From the NCBI RefSeq assembly GCF_013167455.1, contig NZ_CP038328.1: a stretch of DNA of 64,000 bases, one strand, 5' to 3'. The translations under genes were made by a program, and so were the position numbers. How positions within the stretch are numbered: position 1 is the first letter of the stretch; each line of letters opens with the position of its first letter. The DNA comes from Escherichia coli O157:H7. Its GTDB lineage: Bacteria > Pseudomonadota > Gammaproteobacteria > Enterobacterales > Enterobacteriaceae. Of the stretch, positions 584-53,198 are shown in pieces. Under the pieces are notes generated by a model, which was not told the origin of the DNA, made no database searches, and saw nothing but the letters and a program-made list of their open reading frames with translations.

Positions 584-2656
<2,073 letters not shown>

Positions 2657-2663
2657 CTATTAA

Positions 2664-2682
2664 TTGGCTGATCGGACTTGTT
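2664..2682 (+). promoter_or_regulatory. FadR-type operator upstream of fabB
   Basis: ttggctgatcggacttgtt resembles the FadR consensus TGGTCNGACC core; lies about 70-85 bp upstream of the fabB ATG. Confidence 0.6.
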
Positions 2683-2684
2683 CG

Positions 2685-2700
2685 GCGTACAAGTGTACGC
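2685..2700 (+). promoter_or_regulatory. FabR-type palindromic operator upstream of fabB
   Basis: Perfect inverted repeat gcgtaca-ag-tgtacgc immediately downstream of the FadR-like site. Confidence 0.6.
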
Positions 2701-2748
2701 TATTGTGCATTCGAAACTTACTCTATGTGCGACTTACAGAGGTATTGA

Positions 2749-3969
2749 ATGAAACGTGCAGTGATTACTGGCCTGGGCATTGTTTCCAGCATCGGTAATA
2801 ACCAGCAGGAAGTCCTGGCATCTCTGCGTGAAGGACGTTCAGGGATCACTTTCTCTCAGGAGCTGAAGGATTCCGGCATGCGTAGCCACGTCTGGGGCAA
2901 CGTAAAACTGGATACCACTGGCCTCATTGACCGCAAAGTTGTGCGCTTTATGAGCGACGCATCCATTTATGCATTCCTTTCTATGGAGCAGGCAATCGCA
3001 GATGCGGGCCTCTCTCCGGAAGCTTACCAGAATAATCCGCGTGTTGGCCTGATTGCAGGTTCTGGCGGCGGTTCCCCGCGTTTCCAGGTGTTCGGCGCTG
3101 ACGCAATGCGCGGCCCGCGCGGCCTGAAAGCGGTTGGCCCGTATGTGGTCACCAAAGCGATGGCATCCGGCGTTTCTGCCTGCCTCGCCACGCCGTTTAA
3201 AATTCATGGCGTTAACTACTCCATCAGCTCCGCGTGTGCGACTTCCGCACACTGTATCGGTAACGCAGTAGAGCAGATCCAACTGGGCAAACAGGACATC
3301 GTGTTTGCTGGCGGCGGCGAAGAGCTGTGCTGGGAAATGGCTTGCGAATTCGACGCAATGGGTGCGCTGTCTACTAAATACAACGACACCCCGGAAAAAG
3401 CCTCCCGTACTTACGATGCTCACCGTGACGGTTTCGTTATCGCTGGCGGCGGCGGTATGGTGGTGGTTGAAGAGCTGGAACACGCGCTGGCGCGTGGTGC
3501 TCACATCTATGCTGAAATCGTTGGCTACGGCGCAACGTCTGATGGCGCAGACATGGTTGCTCCCTCTGGCGAAGGCGCAGTACGTTGTATGCAGATGGCG
3601 ATGCATGGCGTTGATACCCCAATCGATTACCTGAACTCCCACGGCACTTCGACTCCGGTTGGCGACGTGAAAGAGCTGGCAGCTATCCGTGAAGTGTTCG
3701 GCGATAAGAGCCCGGCGATTTCTGCAACCAAAGCCATGACCGGTCACTCTCTGGGCGCTGCTGGCGTACAGGAAGCTATCTACTCTCTGCTGATGCTGGA
3801 ACACGGCTTTATCGCCCCGAGCATCAACATTGAAGAGCTGGACGAGCAGGCTGCGGGTCTGAACATCGTGACCGAAACGACCGATCGCGAACTGACCACT
3901 GTTATGTCTAACAGCTTCGGCTTCGGCGGCACCAACGCCACGCTGGTAATGCGCAAGCTGAAAGATTAA
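2749..3969 (+). CDS. fabB: 3-oxoacyl-ACP synthase I (KAS I)
   Basis: 406 aa; active-site region [14 protein letters not shown] and C-terminal [13 protein letters not shown] typical of KAS enzymes. Confidence 0.97.
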
Positions 3970-13350: not shown

Positions 13351-13714
<364 letters not shown>

Positions 13715-39564: not shown

Positions 39565-40008
39565 ATGAGTATGTCAACATCCACTGAAGTCATCGCTCAT
39601 CACTGGGCATTCGCTATCTTTCTTATCGTTGCCATTGGCCTATGTTGCCTGATGCTGGTAGGCGGTTGGTTTTTAGGCGGTCGCGCACGCGCGAGGTCGA
39701 AAAACGTGCCGTTTGAATCCGGTATCGACTCGGTCGGCTCCGCCCGCTTACGCCTGTCCGCCAAGTTTTATCTGGTGGCCATGTTCTTCGTTATCTTCGA
39801 CGTTGAAGCGCTGTATCTGTTCGCATGGTCAACCTCTATCCGCGAAAGCGGCTGGGTAGGCTTTGTGGAAGCTGCAATTTTTATTTTTGTGTTACTGGCA
39901 GGTCTGGTTTATCTGGTGCGTATTGGCGCGCTGGACTGGACGCCCGCGCGTTCACGCCGCGAGCGTATGAACCCGGAAACGAACAGTATCGCTAATCGTC
40001 AACGCTAA
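39565..40008 (+). CDS. nuoA: NADH:quinone oxidoreductase subunit A
   Basis: 147 aa, three TM helices; first gene of a 13-gene nuo cluster. Confidence 0.96.
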
Positions 40009-40023
40009 CCGCGAGGCATTAAG

Positions 40024-40686
40024 ATGGATTATACGCTCACCCGCATAGATCCCAACGGTGAGAACGACCGTTACCCCCTGCAAAAGCAGGAGATCGTAAC
40101 CGACCCTCTGGAGCAAGAAGTTAACAAAAACGTGTTTATGGGCAAGCTCAATGACATGGTTAACTGGGGTCGTAAAAACTCAATTTGGCCGTATAACTTC
40201 GGTCTTTCCTGCTGTTACGTTGAGATGGTGACTTCGTTTACCGCGGTGCATGACGTGGCGCGTTTTGGCGCAGAAGTATTGCGTGCTTCGCCGCGTCAGG
40301 CTGACCTGATGGTGGTTGCAGGAACCTGCTTTACCAAAATGGCACCGGTTATTCAGCGTCTGTATGACCAGATGCTGGAACCAAAATGGGTTATCTCAAT
40401 GGGTGCCTGTGCCAACTCTGGTGGTATGTACGATATTTATTCCGTTGTGCAGGGCGTCGATAAATTCATCCCGGTTGATGTGTATATCCCGGGCTGCCCG
40501 CCGCGTCCTGAAGCGTACATGCAGGCACTGATGCTGTTGCAGGAATCTATCGGCAAAGAACGTCGTCCGCTCTCCTGGGTGGTTGGCGATCAGGGCGTTT
40601 ATCGCGCCAATATGCAATCAGAGCGCGAACGCAAGCGCGGTGAACGCATTGCCGTAACCAACCTGCGTACACCTGACGAGATTTAA
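40024..40686 (+). CDS. nuoB: NADH:quinone oxidoreductase subunit B (N2 Fe-S cluster)
   Basis: 220 aa; cluster-ligand motifs CCYVEM and GCPP. Confidence 0.97.
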
Positions 40687-40779
40687 TTTGCGCCTGTCGG
40701 CAAAGGGATTTTTCTTCGCTTATTCCTAAATCTATTTCGCGAAGCTTGCTGCGCCGACAGTCACCACGGACCATTTGCA

Positions 40780-42582
40780 ATGGTGAACAATATGACCGAC
40801 TTAACCGCGCAAGAACCCGCCTGGCAGACCCGCGATCATCTTGATGATCCGGTAATTGGCGAACTGCGCAACCGTTTTGGGCCGGATGCCTTTACTGTTC
40901 AGGCGACTCGCACCGGGGTTCCCGTTGTGTGGATCAAGCGTGAACAATTACTGGAAGTTGGCGATTTCTTAAAGAAACTGCCGAAACCTTACGTCATGCT
41001 GTTTGACTTACACGGCATGGACGAACGTCTGCGCACGCACCGCGAAGGGTTACCTGCCGCGGATTTTTCCGTTTTCTACCATCTGATTTCTATCGATCGT
41101 AACCGCGACATCATGCTGAAGGTGGCGCTGGCAGAAAACGACCTGCACGTACCGACCTTCACCAAACTGTTCCCGAACGCTAACTGGTATGAGCGTGAAA
41201 CCTGGGATCTGTTTGGCATTACATTCGACGGTCACCCGAACCTGCGCCGCATCATGATGCCGCAAACCTGGAAAGGTCACCCGCTGCGTAAAGATTACCC
41301 GGCGCGCGCTACCGAATTCTCGCCGTTTGAGCTGACCAAAGCCAAACAGGATCTGGAGATGGAAGCCCTGACCTTCAAACCGGAAGAGTGGGGGATGAAG
41401 CGCGGCACCGAAAACGAGGACTTCATGTTCCTCAACCTCGGTCCGAACCACCCGTCGGCGCACGGTGCTTTCCGTATCGTTTTGCAGCTCGACGGCGAAG
41501 AGATTGTCGACTGCGTACCAGACATCGGCTACCACCACCGTGGTGCGGAGAAAATGGGCGAACGCCAGTCCTGGCACAGCTACATTCCGTATACCGACCG
41601 TATCGAATACCTCGGCGGCTGCGTTAACGAAATGCCTTACGTGCTGGCGGTAGAGAAACTGGCCGGGATCACCGTGCCGGCTCGCGTTAACGTCATTCGC
41701 GTAATGCTCTCCGAACTGTTCCGCATCAACAGCCACCTGCTGTATATCTCGACCTTTATTCAGGACGTCGGCGCAATGACGCCCGTGTTCTTCGCCTTTA
41801 CCGATCGTCAGAAAATTTACGATCTGGTGGAAGCGATCACGGGTTTCCGTATGCACCCGGCGTGGTTCCGTATTGGCGGCGTAGCGCACGACCTGCCGCG
41901 CGGCTGGGATCGCCTGCTGCGTGAGTTCCTCGACTGGATGCCGAAACGTCTGGCGTCTTACGAGAAAGCGGCGCTGCAAAATACCATTCTGAAAGGTCGT
42001 TCCCAGGGCGTTGCCGCCTATGGCGCGAAAGAGGCGCTGGAGTGGGGCACCACTGGCGCGGGCCTGCGTGCTACCGGGATCGACTTCGACGTGCGTAAGG
42101 CGCGTCCTTATTCTGGCTATGAAAACTTCGACTTTGAAATCCCGGTTGGTGGTGGTGTTTCTGACTGCTACACCCGCGTAATGCTTAAAGTGGAAGAGCT
42201 GCGCCAGAGTCTGCGCATTCTTGAGCAGTGCCTCAACAACATGCCGGAAGGCCCGTTCAAAGCGGATCACCCGCTGACCACGCCGCCGCCGAAAGAGCGC
42301 ACGCTGCAACATATCGAAACCCTGATCACCCACTTCCTGCAAGTGTCGTGGGGGCCGGTGATGCCTGCCAATGAATCCTTCCAGATGATTGAGGCGACCA
42401 AAGGGATCAACAGTTACTACCTGACCAGCGACGGTAGCACCATGAGTTATCGCACTCGTATCCGCACGCCGAGTTATGCGCATTTGCAGCAAATTCCGGC
42501 GGCGATCCGCGGCAGCCTGGTGTCTGACCTGATTGTTTATCTGGGCAGTATCGATTTTGTTATGTCAGATGTGGACCGCTAA
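40780..42582 (+). CDS. nuoC: NADH:quinone oxidoreductase fused subunit C/D
   Basis: 600-aa single ORF covering NuoC-like and NuoD-like halves; an alternative ATG at 40792 has the better Shine-Dalgarno spacing. Confidence 0.95.
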
Positions 42583-42584
42583 TT

Positions 42585-43085
42585 ATGCACGAGAATCAAC
42601 AACCACAAACCGAGGCTTTTGAGCTGAGTGCGGCAGAGCGTGAAGCGATCGAGCACGAGATGCACCACTACGAAGACCCGCGTGCGGCGTCCATTGAAGC
42701 GCTGAAAATCGTTCAGAAGCAGCGTGGCTGGGTGCCGGATGGTGCGATCCACGCGATCGCCGATGTGCTGGGTATTCCGGCAAGCGACGTCGAAGGCGTG
42801 GCAACGTTCTACAGCCAGATCTTCCGCCAGCCGGTTGGCCGCCATGTGATCCGTTATTGCGACAGCGTGGTCTGTCATATCAATGGGTATCAGGGTATTC
42901 AGGCGGCGCTCGAGAAAAAGCTGAACATCAAACCAGGGCAAACGACATTTGATGGCCGCTTTACGCTGCTGCCAACTTGCTGCCTGGGGAACTGTGATAA
43001 AGGGCCAAACATGATGATCGATGAGGACACTCACGCGAATCTGACCCCGGAAGCGATCCCTGAACTGCTGGAGCGGTATAAATGA
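42585..43085 (+). CDS. nuoE: NADH:quinone oxidoreductase subunit E (2Fe-2S)
   Basis: 166 aa; thioredoxin-like 2Fe-2S cysteines in YCDSVVCH and [12 protein letters not shown]. Confidence 0.96.
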
Positions 43086-44419
43086 AAAACATTATCCGTA
43101 CTCCCGAAACGCATCCGCTGACCTGGCGTCTGCGCGATGACAAACAGCCAGTGTGGCTGGACGAATACCGCAGCAAAAACGGTTACGAAGGGGCGCGTAA
43201 GGCGCTGACCGGGCTGTCTCCGGACGAAATCGTTAATCAGGTAAAAGACGCTGGTCTGAAAGGGCGCGGCGGCGCGGGCTTTTCGACTGGCTTGAAGTGG
43301 AGCCTGATGCCGAAAGACGAATCCATGAACATCCGTTACCTGCTGTGTAACGCCGATGAAATGGAGCCGGGCACCTATAAAGACCGCCTGTTGATGGAGC
43401 AACTGCCGCACCTGCTGGTGGAAGGTATGCTCATCTCCGCGTTTGCGCTGAAAGCTTACCGTGGCTACATCTTCCTGCGTGGCGAATATATTGAAGCGGC
43501 AGTAAATCTGCGCCGCGCCATTGCCGAAGCGACTGAAGCGGGATTGCTTGGCAAAAACATTATGGGAACAGGTTTCGACTTCGAACTGTTCGTCCATACC
43601 GGGGCAGGGCGCTACATCTGCGGGGAAGAAACAGCGTTAATCAACTCCCTGGAAGGGCGTCGTGCTAACCCACGCTCGAAACCCCCCTTCCCGGCAACCT
43701 CCGGCGTATGGGGCAAACCGACCTGTGTCAACAACGTCGAAACCCTGTGTAACGTTCCGGCGATCCTCGCTAACGGCGTGGAGTGGTATCAGAACATCTC
43801 GAAAAGTAAAGATGCTGGCACCAAGCTGATGGGCTTCTCCGGTCGGGTGAAAAATCCGGGACTGTGGGAACTGCCGTTCGGCACCACCGCACGCGAGATC
43901 CTCGAAGATTACGCCGGTGGTATGCGTGACGGTCTGAAATTCAAAGCCTGGCAGCCAGGCGGCGCGGGCACCGACTTCCTGACCGAAGCGCACCTTGACC
44001 TGCCGATGGAATTCGAAAGTATCGGTAAAGCGGGCAGCCGTCTGGGTACGGCGCTGGCGATGGCGGTTGACCATGAAATCAACATGGTGTCGCTGGTGCG
44101 TAACCTGGAAGAGTTTTTCGCCCGTGAGTCCTGCGGCTGGTGTACGCCGTGCCGCGACGGTCTGCCGTGGAGCGTGAAAATTCTGCGTGCGCTGGAGCGT
44201 GGCGAAGGTCAGCCGGGCGATATCGAAACACTTGAGCAACTGTGTCGATTCTTAGGCCCGGGTAAAACTTTCTGTGCCCACGCACCTGGTGCTGTGGAGC
44301 CGTTACAGAGCGCCATCAAATATTTCCGCGAAGAATTTGAGGCGGGGATCAAACAGCCGTTCAGCAATACCCATTTGATTAATGGGATTCAGCCGAACCT
44401 GCTGAAAGAGCGCTGGTAA
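43082..44419 (+). CDS. nuoF: NADH:quinone oxidoreductase subunit F (NADH/FMN-binding)
   Basis: 445 aa; glycine-rich [11 protein letters not shown]-terminal 4Fe-4S cysteines [12 protein letters not shown]. Confidence 0.97.
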
Positions 44420-44471
44420 CCGAATTTCGATTAACGCTCAGTCTCTGACTGAGAAAACTGGAAGCATGCTA

Positions 44472-47198
44472 ATGGCTACAATTCATGTAGACGGCAAAGA
44501 ATACGAGGTCAACGGAGCGGACAACCTGCTGGAAGCTTGTCTGTCTCTGGGCCTTGATATTCCTTACTTTTGCTGGCATCCGGCGCTGGGAAGCGTCGGT
44601 GCTTGCCGCCAGTGTGCGGTGAAGCAATACCAAAACGCGGAAGACACGCGTGGTCGCCTGGTGATGTCCTGTATGACACCGGCTTCCGATGGCACCTTTA
44701 TTTCCATTGACGACGAAGAAGCGAAACAGTTCCGTGAAAGTGTGGTCGAGTGGTTAATGACCAACCACCCGCACGACTGTCCGGTATGTGAAGAAGGCGG
44801 TAACTGCCATCTTCAGGATATGACCGTGATGACCGGACACAGCTTCCGTCGCTACCGTTTCACCAAACGTACCCACCGTAATCAGGATTTGGGGCCGTTC
44901 ATCTCTCACGAAATGAACCGCTGCATCGCCTGCTACCGCTGCGTGCGTTACTACAAAGATTACGCTGACGGTACAGATCTGGGCGTTTATGGCGCGCATG
45001 ACAACGTCTACTTCGGTCGCCCGGAAGACGGCACGCTGGAAAGCGAATTTTCCGGTAACCTGGTCGAAATTTGCCCGACCGGCGTATTTACCGACAAAAC
45101 GCACTCCGAGCGTTACAACCGTAAATGGGATATGCAGTTTGCGCCGAGCATCTGCCAGCAATGTTCCATCGGCTGTAACATCAGCCCCGGCGAGCGTTAT
45201 GGCGAACTGCGTCGTATCGAAAACCGTTACAACGGTACGGTAAACCACTACTTCCTCTGCGACCGTGGTCGTTTCGGTTACGGTTACGTCAACCTGAAAG
45301 ATCGTCCGCGTCAGCCAGTACAGCGTCGTGGCGATGATTTCATTACCCTCAACGCCGAACAGGCAATGCAGGGCGCGGCAGATATTCTGCGTCAGTCGAA
45401 GAAAGTGATCGGTATTGGTTCTCCGCGTGCCAGCGTGGAAAGCAACTTTGCGCTGCGTGAACTGGTGGGCGAAGAAAACTTCTACACCGGTATCGCTCAC
45501 GGTGAGCAGGAACGTCTGCAACTGGCGCTGAAAGTGCTGCGTGAAGGCGGCATTTATACTCCGGCTCTGCGCGAAATCGAATCTTACGATGCGGTACTGG
45601 TGCTGGGCGAAGACGTTACCCAGACCGGCGCGCGCGTCGCGCTGGCAGTGCGCCAGGCGGTGAAAGGTAAAGCGCGCGAAATGGCGGCAGCACAGAAAGT
45701 GGCTGACTGGCAGATTGCGGCAATCCTCAATATCGGTCAACGTGCTAAGCATCCGCTGTTTGTTACCAACGTTGATGACACCCGTCTGGATGATATCGCG
45801 GCGTGGACTTACCGCGCACCGGTTGAAGATCAGGCGCGTTTAGGTTTTGCCATCGCCCATGCGCTGGATAACTCTGCGCCAGCGGTTGACGGTATTGAAC
45901 CTGAGCTGCAAAGCAAAATCGACGTCATCGTGCAGGCACTGGCGGGTGCGAAGAAACCGTTGATTATCTCCGGGACGAACGCCGGTAGCTTAGAGGTGAT
46001 TCAGGCTGCGGCTAACGTCGCGAAAGCCCTGAAAGGTCGCGGCGCTGACGTCGGTATCACCATGATTGCCCGTTCCGTCAACAGCATGGGGTTGGGCATT
46101 ATGGGCGGTGGATCGCTTGAAGAAGCGTTAACCGAACTGGAAACCGGACGCGCCGACGCGGTGGTGGTGCTGGAAAACGATCTGCATCGTCACGCTTCTG
46201 CTACCCGCGTGAATGCTGCGCTGGCTAAAGCGCCGCTGGTGATGGTGGTTGACCATCAACGCACAGCGATCATGGAAAACGCCCATCTGGTGCTTTCCGC
46301 TGCCAGCTTTGCTGAAAGCGACGGTACGGTAATTAATAATGAAGGTCGCGCCCAACGTTTCTTCCAGGTTTACGATCCGGCTTATTACGACAGCAAAACT
46401 GTCATGCTGGAAAGTTGGCGCTGGCTGCACTCGCTGCACAGCACCTTGCTGAGCCGTGAAGTGGACTGGACGCAGCTCGACCATGTAATTGACGCTGTTG
46501 TGGCGAAAATCCCGGAACTGGCGGGTATCAAAGATGCTGCGCCAGATGCGACATTCCGTATTCGTGGGCAGAAACTGGCCCGTGAACCGCACCGTTACAG
46601 CGGTCGTACCGCCATGCGCGCCAATATCAGCGTTCATGAGCCGCGTCAGCCGCAGGATATTGACACCATGTTCACCTTCTCGATGGAAGGTAACAACCAG
46701 CCGACCGCGCACCGTTCGCAAGTGCCGTTTGCCTGGGCTCCGGGCTGGAACTCCCCGCAGGCGTGGAACAAATTCCAGGACGAAGTGGGCGGCAAACTGC
46801 GCTTTGGCGATCCGGGTGTGCGTCTGTTTGAAACCAGCGAAAATGGTCTGGATTACTTCACCAGCGTACCGGCACGCTTCCAGCCGCAGGACGGGAAATG
46901 GCGTATCGCGCCGTACTACCACCTGTTTGGCAGCGATGAATTGTCACAGCGTGCTCCGGTCTTCCAGTGTCGTATGCCGCAGCCGTACATCAAACTCAAC
47001 CCAGCGGATGCCGCGAAGTTGGGTGTAAACGCAGGTACACGCGTCTCCTTTAGTTACGATGGCAACACGGTCACTCTGCCGGTTGAAATCGCTGAAGGGC
47101 TGACGGCAGGGCAGGTGGGCTTGCCGATGGGTATGTCCGGCATTGCTCCGGTGCTGGCTGGCGCGCATCTTGAGGATCTCAAGGAGGCACAACAATGA
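44472..47198 (+). CDS. nuoG: NADH:quinone oxidoreductase subunit G
   Basis: 908 aa from ATG 44472 (track ORF starts 6 nt earlier, but that ATG is too close to the ggaag SD); N-terminal 2Fe-2[16 protein letters not shown] and multiple 4Fe-4S motifs. Confidence 0.97.
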
Positions 47199-48172
47199 GT
47201 TGGATATCACCGGAACTGATTGAGATCCTGCTGACCATCCTCAAAGCGGTGGTGATCCTGCTGGTGGTTGTCACCTGCGGGGCATTCATGAGCTTTGGCG
47301 AACGTCGCCTGCTGGGTCTGTTCCAGAACCGTTACGGACCTAACCGTGTTGGCTGGGGTGGTTCGCTCCAGCTGGTTGCGGACATGATCAAAATGTTCTT
47401 TAAAGAAGACTGGATCCCGAAATTCTCGGATCGCGTCATCTTTACCCTGGCACCGATGATTGCCTTTACCTCGCTGCTGCTGGCCTTTGCGATTGTGCCA
47501 GTCAGTCCGGGTTGGGTGGTTGCCGACCTGAACATCGGGATTTTGTTCTTCCTGATGATGGCCGGTCTGGCGGTTTACGCGGTGCTGTTTGCGGGCTGGT
47601 CAAGTAACAACAAATACTCGCTGCTCGGTGCGATGCGTGCTTCTGCGCAGACCCTGAGCTACGAAGTGTTCCTCGGGCTTTCCCTGATGGGCGTGGTGGC
47701 GCAGGCCGGTTCATTCAACATGACCGACATCGTCAACAGCCAGGCGCATGTGTGGAACGTCATCCCGCAATTCTTTGGTTTTATTACCTTTGCCATCGCG
47801 GGCGTGGCGGTGTGTCACCGTCACCCGTTTGACCAGCCGGAAGCCGAGCAGGAACTGGCGGATGGTTACCACATTGAATATTCCGGTATGAAGTTCGGTC
47901 TGTTCTTCGTGGGTGAGTACATCGGGATTGTGACCATCTCTGCATTGATGGTGACGCTGTTCTTCGGTGGCTGGCAAGGCCCGTTGTTACCGCCATTCAT
48001 CTGGTTCGCGCTGAAAACCGCGTTCTTTATGATGATGTTCATTTTGATTCGTGCGTCGTTACCGCGTCCGCGTTATGACCAGGTAATGTCCTTCGGCTGG
48101 AAAATCTGCCTGCCGCTGACGCTGATCAACTTGCTGGTAACGGCGGCTGTCATTCTCTGGCAGGCGCAATAA
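47195..48172 (+). CDS. nuoH: NADH:quinone oxidoreductase subunit H
   Basis: 325 aa polytopic membrane protein; overlaps nuoG stop by 4 bp. Confidence 0.96.
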
Positions 48173-48186
48173 GGGGCAATAAGACC

Positions 48187-48729
48187 ATGACCTTAAAAGA
48201 ATTGTTAGTAGGTTTCGGCACCCAGGTTCGTAGTATCTGGATGATCGGCCTGCACGCGTTCGCCAAACGCGAAACGCGAATGTACCCGGAAGAGCCGGTC
48301 TATCTGCCGCCCCGTTATCGTGGTCGTATCGTTCTGACCCGCGACCCGGACGGCGAAGAGCGTTGCGTAGCCTGTAACCTCTGCGCGGTAGCCTGCCCGG
48401 TCGGCTGTATCTCGCTGCAAAAAGCAGAAACCAAAGACGGTCGCTGGTATCCGGAATTTTTCCGCATCAACTTCTCACGCTGCATTTTCTGTGGTTTGTG
48501 CGAAGAAGCCTGTCCGACCACGGCGATTCAGTTAACCCCGGATTTCGAAATGGGGGAATACAAGCGCCAGGATCTGGTTTACGAGAAAGAGGATCTGCTG
48601 ATCTCCGGTCCGGGCAAATACCCGGAGTATAACTTCTACCGGATGGCAGGTATGGCAATCGACGGCAAAGATAAGGGCGAAGCAGAGAACGAAGCCAAGC
48701 CTATCGACGTCAAGAGCCTGTTACCGTAA
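48187..48729 (+). CDS. nuoI: NADH:quinone oxidoreductase subunit I (2 x 4Fe-4S ferredoxin)
   Basis: 180 aa; [12 protein letters not shown] and [12 protein letters not shown]. Confidence 0.97.
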
Positions 48730-48740
48730 GGAGAGGGGCA

Positions 48741-49295
48741 ATGGAGTTCGCTTTTTATATCTGTGGCCTGATAGCCATACTTGCGACCTTGCGAGTGATC
48801 ACCCATACCAATCCGGTACACGCACTGCTGTACCTGATTATTTCGCTGCTGGCGATTTCCGGGGTGTTCTTCTCACTAGGCGCTTACTTCGCCGGTGCGC
48901 TGGAAATTATCGTCTACGCGGGTGCCATTATGGTGCTGTTCGTGTTCGTGGTGATGATGCTCAACCTGGGCGGTTCAGAAATCGAACAAGAACGCCAGTG
49001 GCTGAAACCGCAGGTGTGGATTGGTCCGGCAATTTTGTCAGCCATCATGTTGGTGGTGATTGTTTACGCCATTCTCGGTGTTAACGATCAAGGTATCGAC
49101 GGTACGCCAATCAGTGCTAAAGCAGTGGGTATTACGCTGTTCGGGCCTTACGTACTGGCGGTGGAACTGGCTTCTATGCTGCTGCTCGCGGGTCTGGTTG
49201 TGGCCTTCCACGTCGGTCGTGAAGAGCGTGCGGGTGAAGTGCTGAGCAATCGTAAAGACGACAGCGCGAAAAGAAAAACGGAGGAGCACGCATGA
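48741..49295 (+). CDS. nuoJ: NADH:quinone oxidoreductase subunit J
   Basis: 184 aa membrane protein. Confidence 0.95.
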
Positions 49296-49594
49296 TCCCC
49301 TTACAACATGGACTGATCCTCGCGGCAATCTTATTCGTTCTTGGCTTAACCGGTCTGGTTATCCGTCGCAATCTGCTGTTTATGCTGATTGGTCTGGAAA
49401 TCATGATTAACGCTTCCGCGCTGGCCTTTGTGGTCGCCGGAAGTTACTGGGGCCAGACCGACGGTCAGGTGATGTACATTCTCGCCATCAGCCTCGCGGC
49501 GGCAGAAGCGAGTATCGGCCTTGCGCTGCTGCTGCAACTTCACCGTCGTCGCCAGAACCTGAACATCGATTCAGTAAGTGAGATGCGCGGATGA
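49292..49594 (+). CDS. nuoK: NADH:quinone oxidoreductase subunit K
   Basis: 100 aa, three TM helices; 4-bp overlaps with nuoJ and nuoL. Confidence 0.95.
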
Positions 49595-51432
49595 ACATGC
49601 TTGCCTTAACCATTATTTTGCCATTGATTGGCTTCGTCCTGCTGGCGTTCTCCCGTGGGCGCTGGTCTGAAAACGTCTCGGCGATCGTCGGCGTTGGCTC
49701 TGTGGGCCTGGCGGCGCTGGTAACTGCCTTTATTGGCGTTGACTTCTTCGCTAACGGCGAGCAGGCATACAGCCAGCCGCTGTGGACGTGGATGTCGGTA
49801 GGCGACTTTAACATCGGTTTTAACCTGGTGCTGGACGGCCTGTCGCTGACCATGCTCTCGGTGGTCACTGGTGTGGGTTTCCTTATTCACATGTACGCCT
49901 CCTGGTATATGCGCGGTGAAGAGGGCTACTCTCGCTTCTTCGCTTACACCAACCTGTTTATCGCCAGCATGGTGGTTCTGGTGCTTGCCGACAACCTGCT
50001 GCTGATGTACCTCGGCTGGGAAGGCGTGGGCCTGTGCTCCTATCTGCTGATCGGGTTCTATTACACCGATCCGAAGAATGGCGCAGCGGCAATGAAAGCG
50101 TTCGTCGTGACCCGTGTGGGTGACGTGTTCCTCGCTTTCGCGCTGTTCATTCTTTACAACGAACTGGGCACCCTGAACTTCCGCGAAATGGTGGAACTGG
50201 CACCAGCGCACTTTGCTGACGGCAATAACATGCTGATGTGGGCGACGCTGATGCTGCTGGGCGGTGCGGTCGGTAAATCTGCGCAGTTGCCGTTGCAGAC
50301 ATGGCTTGCCGACGCGATGGCGGGCCCGACGCCTGTCTCCGCGCTGATCCACGCCGCAACGATGGTAACCGCGGGTGTCTACCTGATCGCCCGTACCCAC
50401 GGCCTGTTCCTGATGACGCCGGAAGTTCTGCATCTGGTGGGCATTGTTGGGGCGGTTACGCTGCTGCTGGCCGGTTTTGCCGCGCTGGTACAGACCGACA
50501 TCAAACGTGTTCTCGCTTACTCTACCATGAGCCAGATTGGCTACATGTTCCTCGCGCTTGGCGTGCAGGCATGGGATGCGGCGATTTTTCACTTGATGAC
50601 CCACGCGTTCTTTAAAGCGCTGCTGTTCCTGGCATCCGGTTCCGTCATTCTCGCCTGCCATCACGAACAGAACATCTTCAAGATGGGCGGTCTGCGTAAA
50701 TCTATTCCGCTGGTTTATCTCTGCTTCCTGGTGGGCGGCGCAGCACTGTCGGCACTGCCGCTAGTCACTGCGGGCTTCTTCAGTAAGGATGAGATCCTCG
50801 CGGGTGCGATGGCGAATGGTCATATCAATCTGATGGTGGCAGGTCTGGTCGGTGCGTTTATGACCTCGCTCTACACCTTCCGTATGATTTTCATCGTCTT
50901 CCACGGAAAAGAACAAATTCACGCTCACGCCGTGAAAGGGGTAACTCACAGCCTGCCGCTGATTGTGCTGCTGATCCTTTCCACCTTCGTTGGCGCACTG
51001 ATTGTACCGCCGCTGCAGGGCGTGCTTCCGCAAACGACGGAACTGGCGCACGGCAGCATGTTGACCCTGGAAATTACCTCTGGCGTGGTCGCGGTGGTCG
51101 GCATTCTGCTGGCAGCCTGGCTGTGGCTGGGTAAACGTACTCTGGTGACCTCCATCGCCAACAGTGCGCCGGGCCGTCTGCTGGGCACCTGGTGGTACAA
51201 CGCCTGGGGCTTTGACTGGCTGTACGACAAAGTGTTCGTCAAGCCGTTCCTGGGTATTGCCTGGTTGCTGAAACGCGATCCGCTGAACTCAATGATGAAC
51301 ATCCCGGCTGTCCTTTCCCGCTTTGCAGGTAAAGGCCTGCTGTTAAGCGAGAACGGTTATCTGCGCTGGTATGTGGCATCCATGAGCATCGGTGCGGTCG
51401 TGGTGCTGGCACTGTTGATGGTACTGCGTTGA
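49591..51432 (+). CDS. nuoL: NADH:quinone oxidoreductase subunit L (antiporter-like)
   Basis: 613 aa; Mrp-antiporter-like polytopic protein. Confidence 0.96.
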
Positions 51433-51662
51433 GTTGTTGGCTGAGTGAATATACCCGGCGTTGCGCCGGGTCTGTGAACTAAGAATAAATTTTAGGTAAC
51501 TGTTCCTGAAGTACAGGCGTCATCGGCGAAGTCAGACCGGATACCGCCAGCGCACAGCAACCGGAGCGTACTTAAGTACGTGAGGATTGCGAGCACTGCC
51601 GGGATTCGGGCTGGCGAGTGAGATAGCCTGAGCAGGAGTAAATATAAGGGACATACTTAGCT

Positions 51663-53192
51663 ATGTTATTACCCTGGTTAATACTAATCCCCTTTATCGG
51701 CGGCTTCCTGTGCTGGCAGACCGAACGCTTTGGCGTCAAGGTGCCGCGCTGGATCGCGCTGATCACCATGGGATTGACGCTGGCGCTGTCGCTGCAACTG
51801 TGGTTGCAGGGCGGTTATTCACTGACGCAATCCGCCGGAATTCCGCAGTGGCAGTCTGAATTCGACATGCCGTGGATCCCGCGTTTTGGTATCTCTATCC
51901 ATCTCGCCATTGACGGGCTGTCGCTGCTGATGGTCGTGCTGACCGGTCTGCTCGGTGTGCTGGCGGTACTCTGTTCGTGGAAAGAGATCGAAAAATATCA
52001 GGGCTTCTTCCACCTCAACCTGATGTGGATCCTGGGCGGCGTTATCGGCGTGTTCCTTGCCATCGACATGTTCCTGTTCTTCTTCTTCTGGGAAATGATG
52101 CTGGTGCCGATGTACTTCCTGATCGCACTGTGGGGGCATAAAGCCTCTGATGGTAAAACGCGTATCACGGCGGCAACCAAGTTCTTCATTTACACCCAGG
52201 CGAGTGGTCTGGTGATGTTGATCGCCATCCTGGCGCTGGTTTTTGTTCACTACAATGCGACCGGCGTCTGGACCTTCAACTATGAAGAGCTGCTGAATAC
52301 GCCAATGTCCAGTGGTGTGGAATATCTGTTGATGCTGGGCTTCTTCATCGCGTTTGCGGTGAAAATGCCGGTGGTTCCGCTGCATGGCTGGCTGCCGGAT
52401 GCGCACTCACAGGCACCGACCGCCGGTTCCGTGGACCTCGCGGGGATCTTGCTGAAAACCGCCGCTTACGGTCTGCTGCGTTTCTCCCTACCGCTGTTCC
52501 CAAACGCGTCGGCAGAGTTCGCGCCAATCGCCATGTGGCTGGGTGTTATCGGCATCTTCTACGGTGCGTGGATGGCCTTCGCCCAGACCGATATCAAACG
52601 TCTGATCGCCTACACCTCGGTTTCCCACATGGGCTTCGTACTGATTGCTATCTACACCGGCAGCCAGTTGGCCTACCAGGGCGCGGTAATCCAGATGATT
52701 GCGCACGGCTTGTCAGCGGCGGGTCTGTTTATTCTTTGTGGTCAGCTTTATGAACGTATCCATACCCGCGACATGCGCATGATGGGCGGTCTGTGGAGCA
52801 AGATGAAATGGCTGCCAGCCTTGTCACTGTTCTTTGCGGTGGCAACGCTCGGGATGCCAGGCACCGGTAACTTCGTCGGCGAATTTATGATTCTGTTCGG
52901 CAGCTTCCAGGTTGTCCCGGTGATTACCGTTATCTCTACCTTTGGGCTGGTCTTTGCATCTGTTTATTCGCTGGCGATGTTACATCGCGCTTACTTCGGT
53001 AAAGCGAAAAGCCAGATTGCCAGCCAGGAACTGCCAGGGATGTCGCTGCGTGAGCTGTTTATGATCCTGTTGCTGGTGGTGCTGCTGGTACTGCTGGGCT
53101 TCTATCCGCAGCCGATTCTGGATACCTCGCACTCCGCGATTGGCAATATCCAGCAGTGGTTTGTTAATTCCGTTACTACTACAAGGCCGTAA
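51663..53192 (+). CDS. nuoM: NADH:quinone oxidoreductase subunit M (antiporter-like)
   Basis: 509 aa. Confidence 0.96.
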   Translation: MLLPWLILIPFIGGFLCWQTERFGVKVPRWIALITMGLTLALSLQLWLQGGYSLTQSAGIPQWQSEFDMPWIPRFGISIHLAIDGLSLLMVVLTGLLGVLAVLCSWKEIEKYQGFFHLNLMWILGGVIGVFLAIDMFLFFFFWEMMLVPMYFLIALWGHKASDGKTRITAATKFFIYTQASGLVMLIAILALVFVHYNATGVWTFNYEELLNTPMSSGVEYLLMLGFFIAFAVKMPVVPLHGWLPDAHSQAPTAGSVDLAGILLKTAAYGLLRFSLPLFPNASAEFAPIAMWLGVIGIFYGAWMAFAQTDIKRLIAYTSVSHMGFVLIAIYTGSQLAYQGAVIQMIAHGLSAAGLFILCGQLYERIHTRDMRMMGGLWSKMKWLPALSLFFAVATLGMPGTGNFVGEFMILFGSFQVVPVITVISTFGLVFASVYSLAMLHRAYFGKAKSQIASQELPGMSLRELFMILLLVVLLVLLGFYPQPILDTSHSAIGNIQQWFVNSVTTTRP

Positions 53193-53198
53193 ATCGCC

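Follow-up and report, generated by a model that had tools for sequence, protein, structure and literature searches.

nuoCD, a fused NuoC-NuoD gene in the nuo operon of Escherichia coli O157:H7

The nuo operon and the nuoCD reading frame

The window (the whole 64,000-nucleotide stretch of DNA that was analysed) is 100% identical to E. coli O157:H7 chromosomes, and it is because of this identity, not because of the gene fusion described here, that the organism was assigned to O157:H7. A nuo operon of 13 genes occupies positions 39565..54656 on the plus strand. It was delineated from the open reading frame (ORF) list and the RefSeq annotation of the identical O157:H7 region, L001, whose coordinates were converted to window positions by adding 26599. 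nuoA (39565-40008) and nuoB (40024-40686) are followed by nuoCD (40780/40792-42582), nuoE (42585-43085), nuoF (43082-44419), nuoG (44472-47198), nuoH (47195-48172), nuoI (48187-48729), nuoJ (48741-49295), nuoK (49292-49594), nuoL (49591-51432), nuoM (51663-53192) and nuoN (53199-54656), all on the plus strand. The RefSeq gene order is nuoA, B, C (equivalent to C/D), E, F, G, H, I, J, K, L, M, N with one C/D gene, which agrees with the count of 13 rather than 14 genes given in the initial annotation.

One ORF spans 40780..42582 (+), with an ATG start, 600 sense codons, no internal stop and a terminal TAA. The closest in-frame stop on the 5′ side is the TAA of nuoB at 40684. By a hand estimate that assumes uniform codons, the chance of an open frame of 600 codons is about (61/64)^600 = 3e-13. 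The initial annotation had described an uninterrupted frame over NuoC-like and NuoD-like halves and had named beforehand a stop codon or frameshift between them as its refuter; translation of 40780..42582 contains neither, and the ORF listing, the translation and both expected Pfam domains (see below) confirm the single frame. RefSeq annotates this maximal ORF under the gene name nuoC as WP_000247872.1, ‘NADH-quinone oxidoreductase subunit C/D’. On the opposite strand a 480-aa ORF (41050..42492, −) was treated as a shadow ORF; a Pfam search with it returned no match.

The translated protein scored 1216.2 bits against the NCBIfam equivalog for subunit C/D, NF008728, passing the curated cut-off of 840 bits over the full length (residues 3-600 on profile positions 2-598 of 598). 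It combines an N-terminal Complex1_30kDa and a C-terminal Complex1_49kDa domain in one polypeptide, its gene is flanked by nuoB and nuoE, neither the ORF map nor RefSeq shows a nuoD apart from it, and all three quinone-site residues (His224, Tyr273 and Asp325 in UniProt numbering) are present. E. coli NuoCD (UniProt P33599) is represented by PDB entries 7P61, 7NYR, 7Z7S and 7AWT and is the same gene at the same operon position. The BL21-type chain 7p61_C matches over residues 1-600 with 599 of 600 identical, the single difference being D301A in ORF numbering. The window protein thus has Ala at UniProt residue 297 where 7p61_C has Asp, an allele common to the 100%-identical O157:H7 genomes; K-12 NuoCD additionally has V and F where the window allele has I and Y, near residues 557 and 562. 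Together these data identify the feature, with a probability of about 97%, as nuoCD of E. coli O157:H7, which encodes NuoC and NuoD as one fused subunit of complex I (NDH-1), the proton-pumping NADH:quinone oxidoreductase. Because the window protein is 599/600 identical to the experimentally characterised NuoCD, it would be expected to serve the same function in complex I.

That E. coli fuses NuoC with NuoD and has 13 nuo genes was reported decades ago, and several cryo-EM structures show the fused chain. A contrary reading takes the single ORF for an artefact of sequencing or assembly that hides a truly separate nuoC and nuoD in a 14-gene operon. Most bacteria do keep the two genes apart, as in the metagenomic operon L082, and 14 genes were reportedly listed when the E. 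coli nuo sequence first appeared. Such an artefact is exceedingly improbable, given that the same open frame is found in 5423 complete E. coli genomes and 79 other species and that the fused polypeptide is seen directly by cryo-EM. The nuoCD DNA is present as a single copy in 5423 of 5426 complete E. coli genomes.

The formate hydrogenlyase large subunits HycE and HyfG are paralogous fusions of a NuoC-like N-domain and a NuoD-like C-domain (PMC7050243), and they carry a [NiFe] site in place of the quinone site of NuoCD. Owing to this shared layout, and to a match of 7z0s_E to the window protein, the ORF might be taken for a hydrogenase-type paralogue rather than a complex I subunit. That assignment is next to inconceivable: 7z0s_E aligns over residues 113-496 only (E 2e-38), whereas the full-length match to NuoCD has E = 0; the NF008728 cut-off is passed; and the gene sits between nuoB and nuoE. 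No hydrogenase model was found among the NCBIfam matches, and the context is nuo, not formate hydrogenlyase. NuoBCD triple fusions (NF009808) have the same C-D junction, and two of them (P0122, P0127) consist of Oxidored_q6, Complex1_30kDa and Complex1_49kDa. The window protein scored 708 bits against this model, below the cut-off of 1156, and covered only profile positions 220-791; nuoB is a separate gene here.

Translation start and the nuoB-nuoCD spacer

A scan of a genome collection provided the best 80 loci (Enterobacterales, unclassified MAGs and one Marinomonas) on which the start-codon, linker and spacer analyses were based. The 600 codons stated in the initial annotation are those of the maximal ORF and of the RefSeq/PGAP model, but the comparative evidence favours a shorter gene. 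Translation most likely begins at the second ATG, 40792, which would give a coding sequence of 596 codons plus stop (40792..42582, +; MTDLTAQ..., the UniProt numbering). This ATG aligns with the start in other genera. In Pantoea, Mixta, Dickeya, Yersinia, Pectobacterium, Proteus, Edwardsiella and others, its equivalent is the sole available start, an in-frame stop lying 1-5 codons upstream. A putative Shine-Dalgarno element, TGGTGA (40781..40786, +), precedes it and overlaps the annotated ATG at 40780; nearly all of the best 80 species loci have the motif (T/A)GGTGA 5-8 nt 5′ of the shared ATG. The calculated anti-Shine-Dalgarno duplex has −7.6 kcal/mol for the start at 40792.

Translation from the annotated ATG at 40780, to yield the 600-residue MVNNMTD... 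protein alone or beside the 596-residue form, is improbable, although several observations speak for it. It is the first ATG in the ORF and the RefSeq/PGAP choice, the 600-residue form was deposited in PDB entries 7p61 and 9taj, at least 1000 contigs record exactly this 600-aa sequence, and ATG-GTG is kept in every sampled species of Enterobacteriaceae sensu stricto. Against it, anti-Shine-Dalgarno pairing is weak (−3.2 kcal/mol), and codons 3-4 vary non-synonymously (NN, NI, KN, NT, RT, RI, RN), whereas codons past 40792 vary mostly at third positions. In the Erwiniaceae Pantoea and Mixta, ATGGTGA is kept in another frame, with a TAA after it, and it therefore appears to act like a ribosome-binding site. 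The protein has 596 residues in UniProt and in most papers, among them PMC8357420 (Table 2) and PMC7050243, and the residue numbers in PMC11627005 are given ‘according to UniProt’; the same allele is annotated as 596 aa on 392 contigs. The cryo-EM model of NuoCD starts at residue 9 (PMC8357420), and the N-terminus is therefore not visible there. For this heavily mutagenised protein, two residue numberings offset by four thus coexist, one in RefSeq/PGAP and some PDB entries (600 aa), the other in UniProt and most papers (596 aa).

The spacer between nuoB and nuoCD contains a candidate structured RNA (40694..40786, +) with a conserved, covarying fold in the Enterobacteriaceae. A three-tier hairpin at 40694-40760 is built from an outer stem (CUGUCGGC/GCCGACAG), a middle stem and an inner stem (40714-40719/40739-40744) that closes a 19-nt A/U-rich loop. 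In a second small hairpin, UCACCA (40761-40766) pairs with the UGGUGA ribosome-binding site of nuoCD (40781-40786). The same fold was found in every sampled Enterobacteriaceae species, leaving out the individual folds of L005, L006, L014 and L074, whose sequences were cut short at a TCACTA in the loop, and is specific to that family. When the fold of one species was projected onto the MAFFT spacer alignment, 91.9% of cells were paired, compared with 28-44% for slid partners. Nine pairs had double-sided changes, against 0 of 500 shuffles. RNAalifold on the MAFFT spacer alignment did not recover the outer and middle stems, because of indel misalignment.

Searches of Rfam gave no match to the spacer RNA at E<=10, and a literature search found no description of an RNA in the nuoB-nuoCD spacer. 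A dispersed repeat of the REP or ERIC kind does not fit, as exactly one copy per genome was present in 5423 genomes and the window holds a single model match; nor does a terminator or promoter, with no consensus sites within 40500-40900. We tentatively suggest that this uncatalogued, Enterobacteriaceae-specific RNA might control nuoCD expression, the UCACCA helix occluding UGGUGA, and that the ATG at 40780 could be a part of the structure rather than a start; the odds are somewhat against this proposal. Such an RNA, absent from Rfam, may tune NuoCD translation and offers a small lead.

Domains, quinone site and linker

The NuoC domain (30-kDa, Nqo5, NDUFS3) comprises ORF residues 50-178 (40927..41313, +) and was delimited by Pfam Complex1_30kDa (PF00329; residues 50-178, E 9.5e-43), TIGR01961 and alignments to the free NuoC proteins 8e9g_C, 8qby_C and that of L082. 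The NuoD domain (49-kDa, Nqo4, NDUFS2), ORF residues 215-600 (41422..42579, +), is recognised by TIGR01962 (589 bits at residues 215-600), by Complex1_49kDa (PF00346; residues 329-600, E 2.5e-104) and by alignments to free NuoD, ND7 and Nqo4. Alignment against unfused proteins, proposed in the initial annotation as a check, supports the two-domain assignment: the N-terminal half aligns onto the free NuoC of Mycobacterium and Paracoccus, and the C-terminal half end to end onto free NuoD/Nqo4/ND7. The separate subunits of Thermus (Nqo5/Nqo4), Paracoccus, Mycobacterium, mitochondria (NDUFS3/NDUFS2) and L082 are homologous domains that align end to end and keep the quinone-site residues, but they are encoded by two genes.

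Three residues of the NuoD domain have described roles in binding the quinone headgroup and in proton relay (PMC11627005). His224 (ORF His228; codon 41461..41463, +) and Tyr273 (ORF Tyr277; codon 41608..41610, +) are headgroup ligands (PMC11627005). They correspond to Thermus Nqo4 His38 and Tyr87, respectively, by a 190-residue offset from NuoCD to Thermus chain 2fug_4, which places ORF His228 on Nqo4 residue 38. Asp325 (ORF Asp329; codon 41764..41766, +) is the ion-pair partner of His224 (PMC11627005), and its column, D329, is invariant in alignment A1. His220, His224 and Tyr273 are invariant in 80 of 80 species among the best 80 loci.

The C-D linker, UniProt residues 173-211 (ORF 177-215; 41308..41424, +), is exactly 39 residues long with zero indels in all 80 species of the best 80 loci. 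Its mean identity in that set is 86%, equal to that of the NuoC domain. A 35-residue C-D linker was described by cryo-EM, with an α-helix at residues 180-194 that touches NuoB (PMC8357420). NuoCD would be placed in the connecting (Q) module of the complex I peripheral arm. There, the NuoD domain together with NuoB, the carrier of Fe-S cluster N2, would form the quinone-reduction cavity, and the NuoC domain, which lacks a cofactor, would act as an assembly scaffold. The rigidly conserved 39-residue linker, with its NuoB-packing helix, connects the two domains.

Origin, value and distribution of the fusion

The metagenomic operon L082 served as the unfused comparator, and its nuoC and nuoD share a GTGA, a 4-nt overlap of stop and start. 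Its NuoC core ends at residue 156 of 231 and its NuoD core begins at residue 24 of 407, so that the free tails are longer (75 residues after the NuoC core and 23 before the NuoD core) than the ~41 residues between the E. coli cores. The ancestral state may have been such a pair of adjacent genes, translationally coupled through the 4-nt overlap. We infer that nuoC and nuoD fused by loss of the stop/start junction, which would have produced one frame and guaranteed 1:1 stoichiometry and co-assembly.

A further reading holds that the fusion is a frozen accident that arose neutrally in the clade E lineage and gives neither a selective nor a mechanistic advantage over separate subunits. Unfused enzymes function well in most organisms, and formate hydrogenlyase withstands splitting of the paralogous HycE, which NuoCD reportedly does not (PMC7050243). 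Deleting or splitting off the NuoC domain abolished complex I activity (PMC7050243), which speaks against neutrality; this sole splitting experiment cut at residues 169/170, within the C domain as later defined by structure (1-172), plasmid complementation of the split strain was partial, and polar effects on the operon were not excluded by its authors (PMC7050243), caveats that leave the neutral reading some room. The linker argues further against a neutral accident, being fixed in length, conserved like the NuoC domain and in helical contact with NuoB (PMC8357420), as does the persistence of fused forms down to 32-47% identity and their further evolution into B/C/D fusions. On balance a neutral origin is rather unlikely.

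The initial annotation had called the fusion lineage-typical, and a complete fused frame is indeed present in 79 of 80 Enterobacterales species loci, the 80th ending at the edge of its sequence. Its use as support for an enterobacterial assignment holds only in part: all sampled Enterobacterales are fused, but the fusion is also found in Pseudomonas, Marinomonas, Aquifex and others and is a weak marker. Aquifex aeolicus NuoCD2 (PDB 7q5y_B) is a fused C/D polypeptide of 586 aa (PMC1959517) from a distant phylum, with remote similarity to the window protein (E 1.7e-100, match from residue 96), and the fusion is therefore not enterobacteria-specific. Fused forms were also found in an ‘Acetobacteraceae bacterium’ and are described in Bacteroides fragilis (PMC7050243). 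The distant fused representatives in a protein-cluster look-up included one member from Candidatus Eisenbacteria and some with B/C/D labels.

A fused NuoCD characterises clade E complex I. All enteric bacteria in the data set of Spero et al. (2015; PMC4453560) fall within clade E of the tree of 14 concatenated subunits; the clade includes Pseudomonas as well as copies that alpha-, beta- and delta-proteobacteria and Bacteroidetes gained by horizontal transfer (PMC4453560). Three features of this clade are found in the window operon: NuoCD is fused; NuoG is long (RefSeq, 908 aa; maximal ORF, 910 aa), the clade E average being 894 aa (PMC4453560); and the N7 motif CXXCXXXC-(X)27-C is present in NuoG, whose translation reads CQQCSIGC, 27 residues, C. 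In a 2025 survey, D was fused to C, or to both B and C, in 1374 species (bioRxiv 10.1101/2025.03.13.643058). The fusion is thus not diagnostic for enterobacteria, and published counts put a C/D or B/C/D fusion in roughly one quarter of the species that have a complete complex I.

A single reading frame for NuoC and NuoD

The nuoCD gene (RefSeq name nuoC; window 40780–42582, + strand) is listed as one open reading frame composed of ATG, 600 sense codons and TAA. Re-translation from the DNA gave zero internal stops, and the closest in-frame stop upstream is the nuoB TAA at 40684; by a hand estimate assuming uniform codons, the chance of a 600-codon open frame is ∼3e-13. Pfam placed Complex1_30kDa (NuoC) at residues 50–178 (E 9.5e-43) and Complex1_49kDa (NuoD) at residues 329–600 (E 2.5e-104) of the 600-residue protein. 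The NCBIfam equivalog for the fused subunit C/D, NF008728, covers residues 3–600 at 1216 bits (cut-off 840), and TIGR01962 (NuoD) spans residues 215–600. The uninterrupted frame through both halves described in the initial annotation is borne out by the ORF listing, the re-translation and Pfam, and neither the DNA nor the translation contains a stop or frameshift between them. A B/C/D triple fusion was rejected as the identity, the corresponding NCBIfam model scoring 708 bits, below its cut-off of 1156. Over residues 1–600, the protein differs at one position from the NuoCD chain of the solved E. coli complex I (7p61_C).

At the DNA level the match to E. coli O157:H7 chromosomes is 100%, and the sequence is present in exactly one copy in 5423 of the 5426 complete E. 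coli genomes. RefSeq lists lrhA followed by nuoA, B, C (product 'subunit C/D'), E, F, G, H, I, J, K, L, M and N, in agreement with the ORF map, so that the proposed count of 13 nuo genes stands.

Both halves align to free homologues when compared with unfused proteins, as had been proposed. The N-terminal part aligns with free NuoC from Mycobacterium smegmatis (8e9g_C, E 1.4e-25) and Paracoccus (8qby_C) and with Thermus Nqo5 (2fug_5). The C-terminal part gives end-to-end alignments to the free NuoD homologues Thermus Nqo4 (residues 24–409 of 409), Polytomella ND7 (13–395 of 395) and mitochondrial NDUFS2. An unfused metagenomic operon (L082), reached via the 407-residue NuoD homologue P0197, has the order nuoA-B-C-D-E-F-G; in contrast to E. 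coli, its nuoC (1205–1900) and nuoD (1897–3120) are separate genes in different frames that overlap by GTGA. E. coli residues 25–170 correspond to residues 11–156 of the 231-residue L082 NuoC, and residues 212–596 to residues 24–407 of the 407-residue NuoD; thus where L082 has ∼98 residues in free tails, E. coli has ∼41. Loss of the stop/start overlap would be a simple route to the fusion.

Several other features were recorded. A 480-residue antisense ORF (41050–42492, − strand) lies wholly within nuoCD; Pfam gave nothing for it at E≤0.01, and it is taken to be a shadow ORF of this codon-biased gene. The 90%-identity cluster of NuoCD (P0002) also lists 364-residue D-alanine--D-alanine ligase sequences, which looks like a clustering artefact. 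Downstream of yfbM, RefSeq annotates a frameshifted hypothetical-protein pseudogene at ∼55329–55946 (− strand; 28730–29347 in L001, the identical O157:H7 region), followed by an ElaD/SseL-family deubiquitinase gene.

Choice of the start codon

Three start candidates are in frame: ATG 40780, GTG 40783 and ATG 40792. The 600-codon length initially given matches the maximal ORF and the PGAP model, but ATG 40792, which yields 596 codons, is favoured; on comparative sequence grounds it would be the main or only start with a probability of about 0.8. For 40792 the upstream 20 nt are predicted to pair with the 16S 3′ end at −7.6 kcal/mol, versus −3.2 for 40780. In the protein alignment of NuoCD homologues, sequences from other genera begin at the Met matching ORF residue 5, and MVNN is confined to Escherichia and Citrobacter sequences. 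An in-frame stop lies 1–5 codons 5′ of this shared Met in Pantoea, Mixta, Dickeya, Yersinia, Pectobacterium, Proteus, Edwardsiella, Hafnia psychrotolerans and Thorsellia, where the shared Met is the sole possible start. Nearly every species has a TGGTGA motif 5–8 nt 5′ of the shared ATG. In Erwiniaceae the identical ATGGTGA lies out of frame with a TAA after it, which argues that it is conserved as a ribosome-binding site and not as codons. Within Enterobacteriaceae, 'codons' 3–4 vary non-synonymously (NN, NI, KN, NT, RT, RI, RN), and changes 3′ of 40792 are mostly at third positions.

Both forms are in use. The exact allele is annotated as 600 residues on at least 1000 contigs and as 596 on 392, and both lengths are present in the PDB. 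UniProt and most papers use the 596-residue form (e.g. PMC8357420, PMC7050243, PMC11627005); some papers count residues by the 600 form, an example being E138, E140 and D143 of the NuoC domain in PMC7050243, which agree with ORF numbering in the alignment. In the same alignment, the Citrobacter koseri protein P0114 ('bifunctional ... C/D', 582 residues) contains scrambled stretches typical of frameshift errors. The nuoG start is also ambiguous, with a maximal ORF from 44466 (910 residues, MLMATIH...) and a start at 44472 (908 residues) in RefSeq and the cryo-EM paper.

Conserved sites, linker and spread of the fusion

ORF residue 213 pairs with Thermus Nqo4 chain residue 23; by this offset, ORF His228 and Tyr277 fall on Nqo4 His38 and Tyr87 (UniProt H224 and Y273). 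With D325 they have been described as ligands of the quinone headgroup and as the proton relay (PMC11627005). Neither H224 nor Y273 varies in 80/80 species, and the D325 column is invariant in the protein alignment of NuoCD homologues.

Codon GCT at 41680–41682 encodes Ala at UniProt residue 297 (ORF 301); of the other 79 aligned species, 47 carry Asp at this position and 32 carry Glu. Asp is also the residue of K-12 and BL21, and Ala that of the 100%-identical O157:H7 genomes, an allele present on at least 1000 contigs in public data. Non-acidic residues occur here in a Morganella morganii protein and more distant homologues, so Ala297 is probably tolerated.

The cryo-EM paper lists a 596-residue NuoCD, modelled from residue 9, with a C domain (1–172), a D domain (212–596), and a 35-residue linker whose helix 180–194 touches NuoB (PMC8357420). 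In the 80-species alignment the linker is 39 residues long in 80/80 species, and it shares with the NuoC domain a mean identity of 0.86 to the window residue (NuoD domain 0.93). By these measures the linker behaves as a structured element rather than a passive tether. NADH oxidase activity fell to 1–4% and assembly was abolished when the NuoC domain was deleted or the gene was split at residues 169/170; complementation of the split was partial, and polar effects were not excluded by the authors (PMC7050243). Because the cut also falls within the structurally defined C domain, a need for covalent NuoC–NuoD linkage is suggested, not proven.

Among the best 80 loci from a one-genome-per-species collection, ORF residues 1 or 5 to 600 were matched in a single frame in all 80, with a complete open frame in 79; the last (L080) runs off the end of the stored DNA. 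These loci include Escherichia, Enterobacter, Citrobacter, Raoultella, Serratia, Yersinia, Pantoea, Erwinia, Dickeya, Photorhabdus, Proteus, Providencia and Edwardsiella, among others, as well as Marinomonas and a few unclassified MAGs. The fusion is therefore lineage-typical, as first described. It is also consistent with an enterobacterial origin but discriminates only weakly, since it occurs in clade E copies, Aquifex and Bacteroides as well. The fused complex I clade E includes all enterics and Pseudomonas, together with copies gained by horizontal transfer in Alpha-, Beta- and Deltaproteobacteria and Bacteroidetes; other gammaproteobacteria (Legionella, Coxiella, Francisella) have unfused clade B enzymes (PMC4453560). 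Further clade E traits present in the window are a 908-residue NuoG and, in its translation, the N7 motif CQQCSIGC-(27)-C. Fused C/D is found in Aquifex aeolicus (chain 7q5y_B; PMC1959517) and Bacteroides fragilis (PMC7050243). An exhaustive search of 50%-identity representatives gave 20,906 relatives; ∼28 of the best 150 give one continuous alignment that starts inside the NuoC domain and runs to the end of NuoD, at only 32–47% identity, and two more are ∼770–800-residue proteins. Pfam detected C+D domains in seven of the distant fused relatives and B+C+D in both larger proteins; one cluster of distant fused relatives includes a Candidatus Eisenbacteria member. A 2025 survey reports D fused to C or to B+C in 1374 species (bioRxiv 10.1101/2025.03.13.643058). 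The organism is assigned by DNA identity, not by the fusion. The initial observation is confirmed and its interpretation supported with two refinements: the gene probably has 596 codons, and the fusion, which is already known and ordinary, is not enterobacteria-specific.

RNA structure in the nuoB–nuoCD spacer

Neighbouring nuo genes mostly overlap or lie ≤15 nt apart. The spacer from nuoB to 40792 is 105 nt in the window, 76–234 nt across Enterobacterales and 43 nt in Marinomonas, compared with 10 nt in the unfused L082. A three-tier RNA hairpin is predicted by folding and covariation at 40694–40760 (+ strand), and folding predicts a second helix on the same strand pairing UCACCA (40761–40766) with the Shine-Dalgarno sequence UGGUGA (40781–40786).

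The single-sequence z-score of the E. coli fold is only −1.5, and folding gave the same architecture in each Enterobacteriaceae species although the middle-stem sequences differ. Covariation was assessed by projecting one member's fold onto a 26-species MAFFT alignment that had been built independently of any structure. Paired cells amounted to 91.9%, a measure somewhat inflated by taking the structure from an aligned member, versus 28–44% with partners slid by 1–3 columns. Double-sided changes affected nine pairs and 25 cells (either count reached in 0/500 shuffles), and the covariation score was 0.188 versus 0.110. In the middle helix, five of the six pairs showed changes on both sides. Frequent G-U pairs point to an RNA on the sense strand. 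The helix sequestering the ribosome-binding site is almost invariant, so covariation neither supports nor contradicts it.

A covariance model found one copy in the window (40684–40794, 94 bits) and matched 29/29 Enterobacteriaceae loci, three of them outside the seed, with no match in loci of other families. Each of 5423 E. coli genomes has one copy of the spacer. It contains no terminator or promoter consensus and had no Rfam match at E≤10, and a literature search found no description of its structure.

The nuoF–nuoG spacer of the same operon carries the nuoG RNA motif (RF01748; 44422–44464, + strand; 50.3 bits, gathering score 33), a known candidate cis-regulatory hairpin (PMC2864571). The nuoL–nuoM spacer (51433–51662), at 230 nt unusually long for a tightly packed operon, contains a 7-bp hairpin (ACCCGGC-GTTGC-GCCGGGT, 51453–51471) 20 nt 3′ of the nuoL stop and had no Rfam match at the gathering threshold. 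Three tandem Rfam matches to naRNA4 (RF02564, nucleoid-associated/REP-type; 72–83 bits) lie at 13405–13475, 13496–13566 and 13587–13657 (+ strand).

The nuoB–nuoCD hairpin described here is limited to Enterobacteriaceae sensu stricto; the remaining families of Enterobacterales carry different hairpins at this site. This spacer structure is the sole mildly new item of the analysis; in these bacteria it may serve translational tuning, mRNA processing or mRNA stability.
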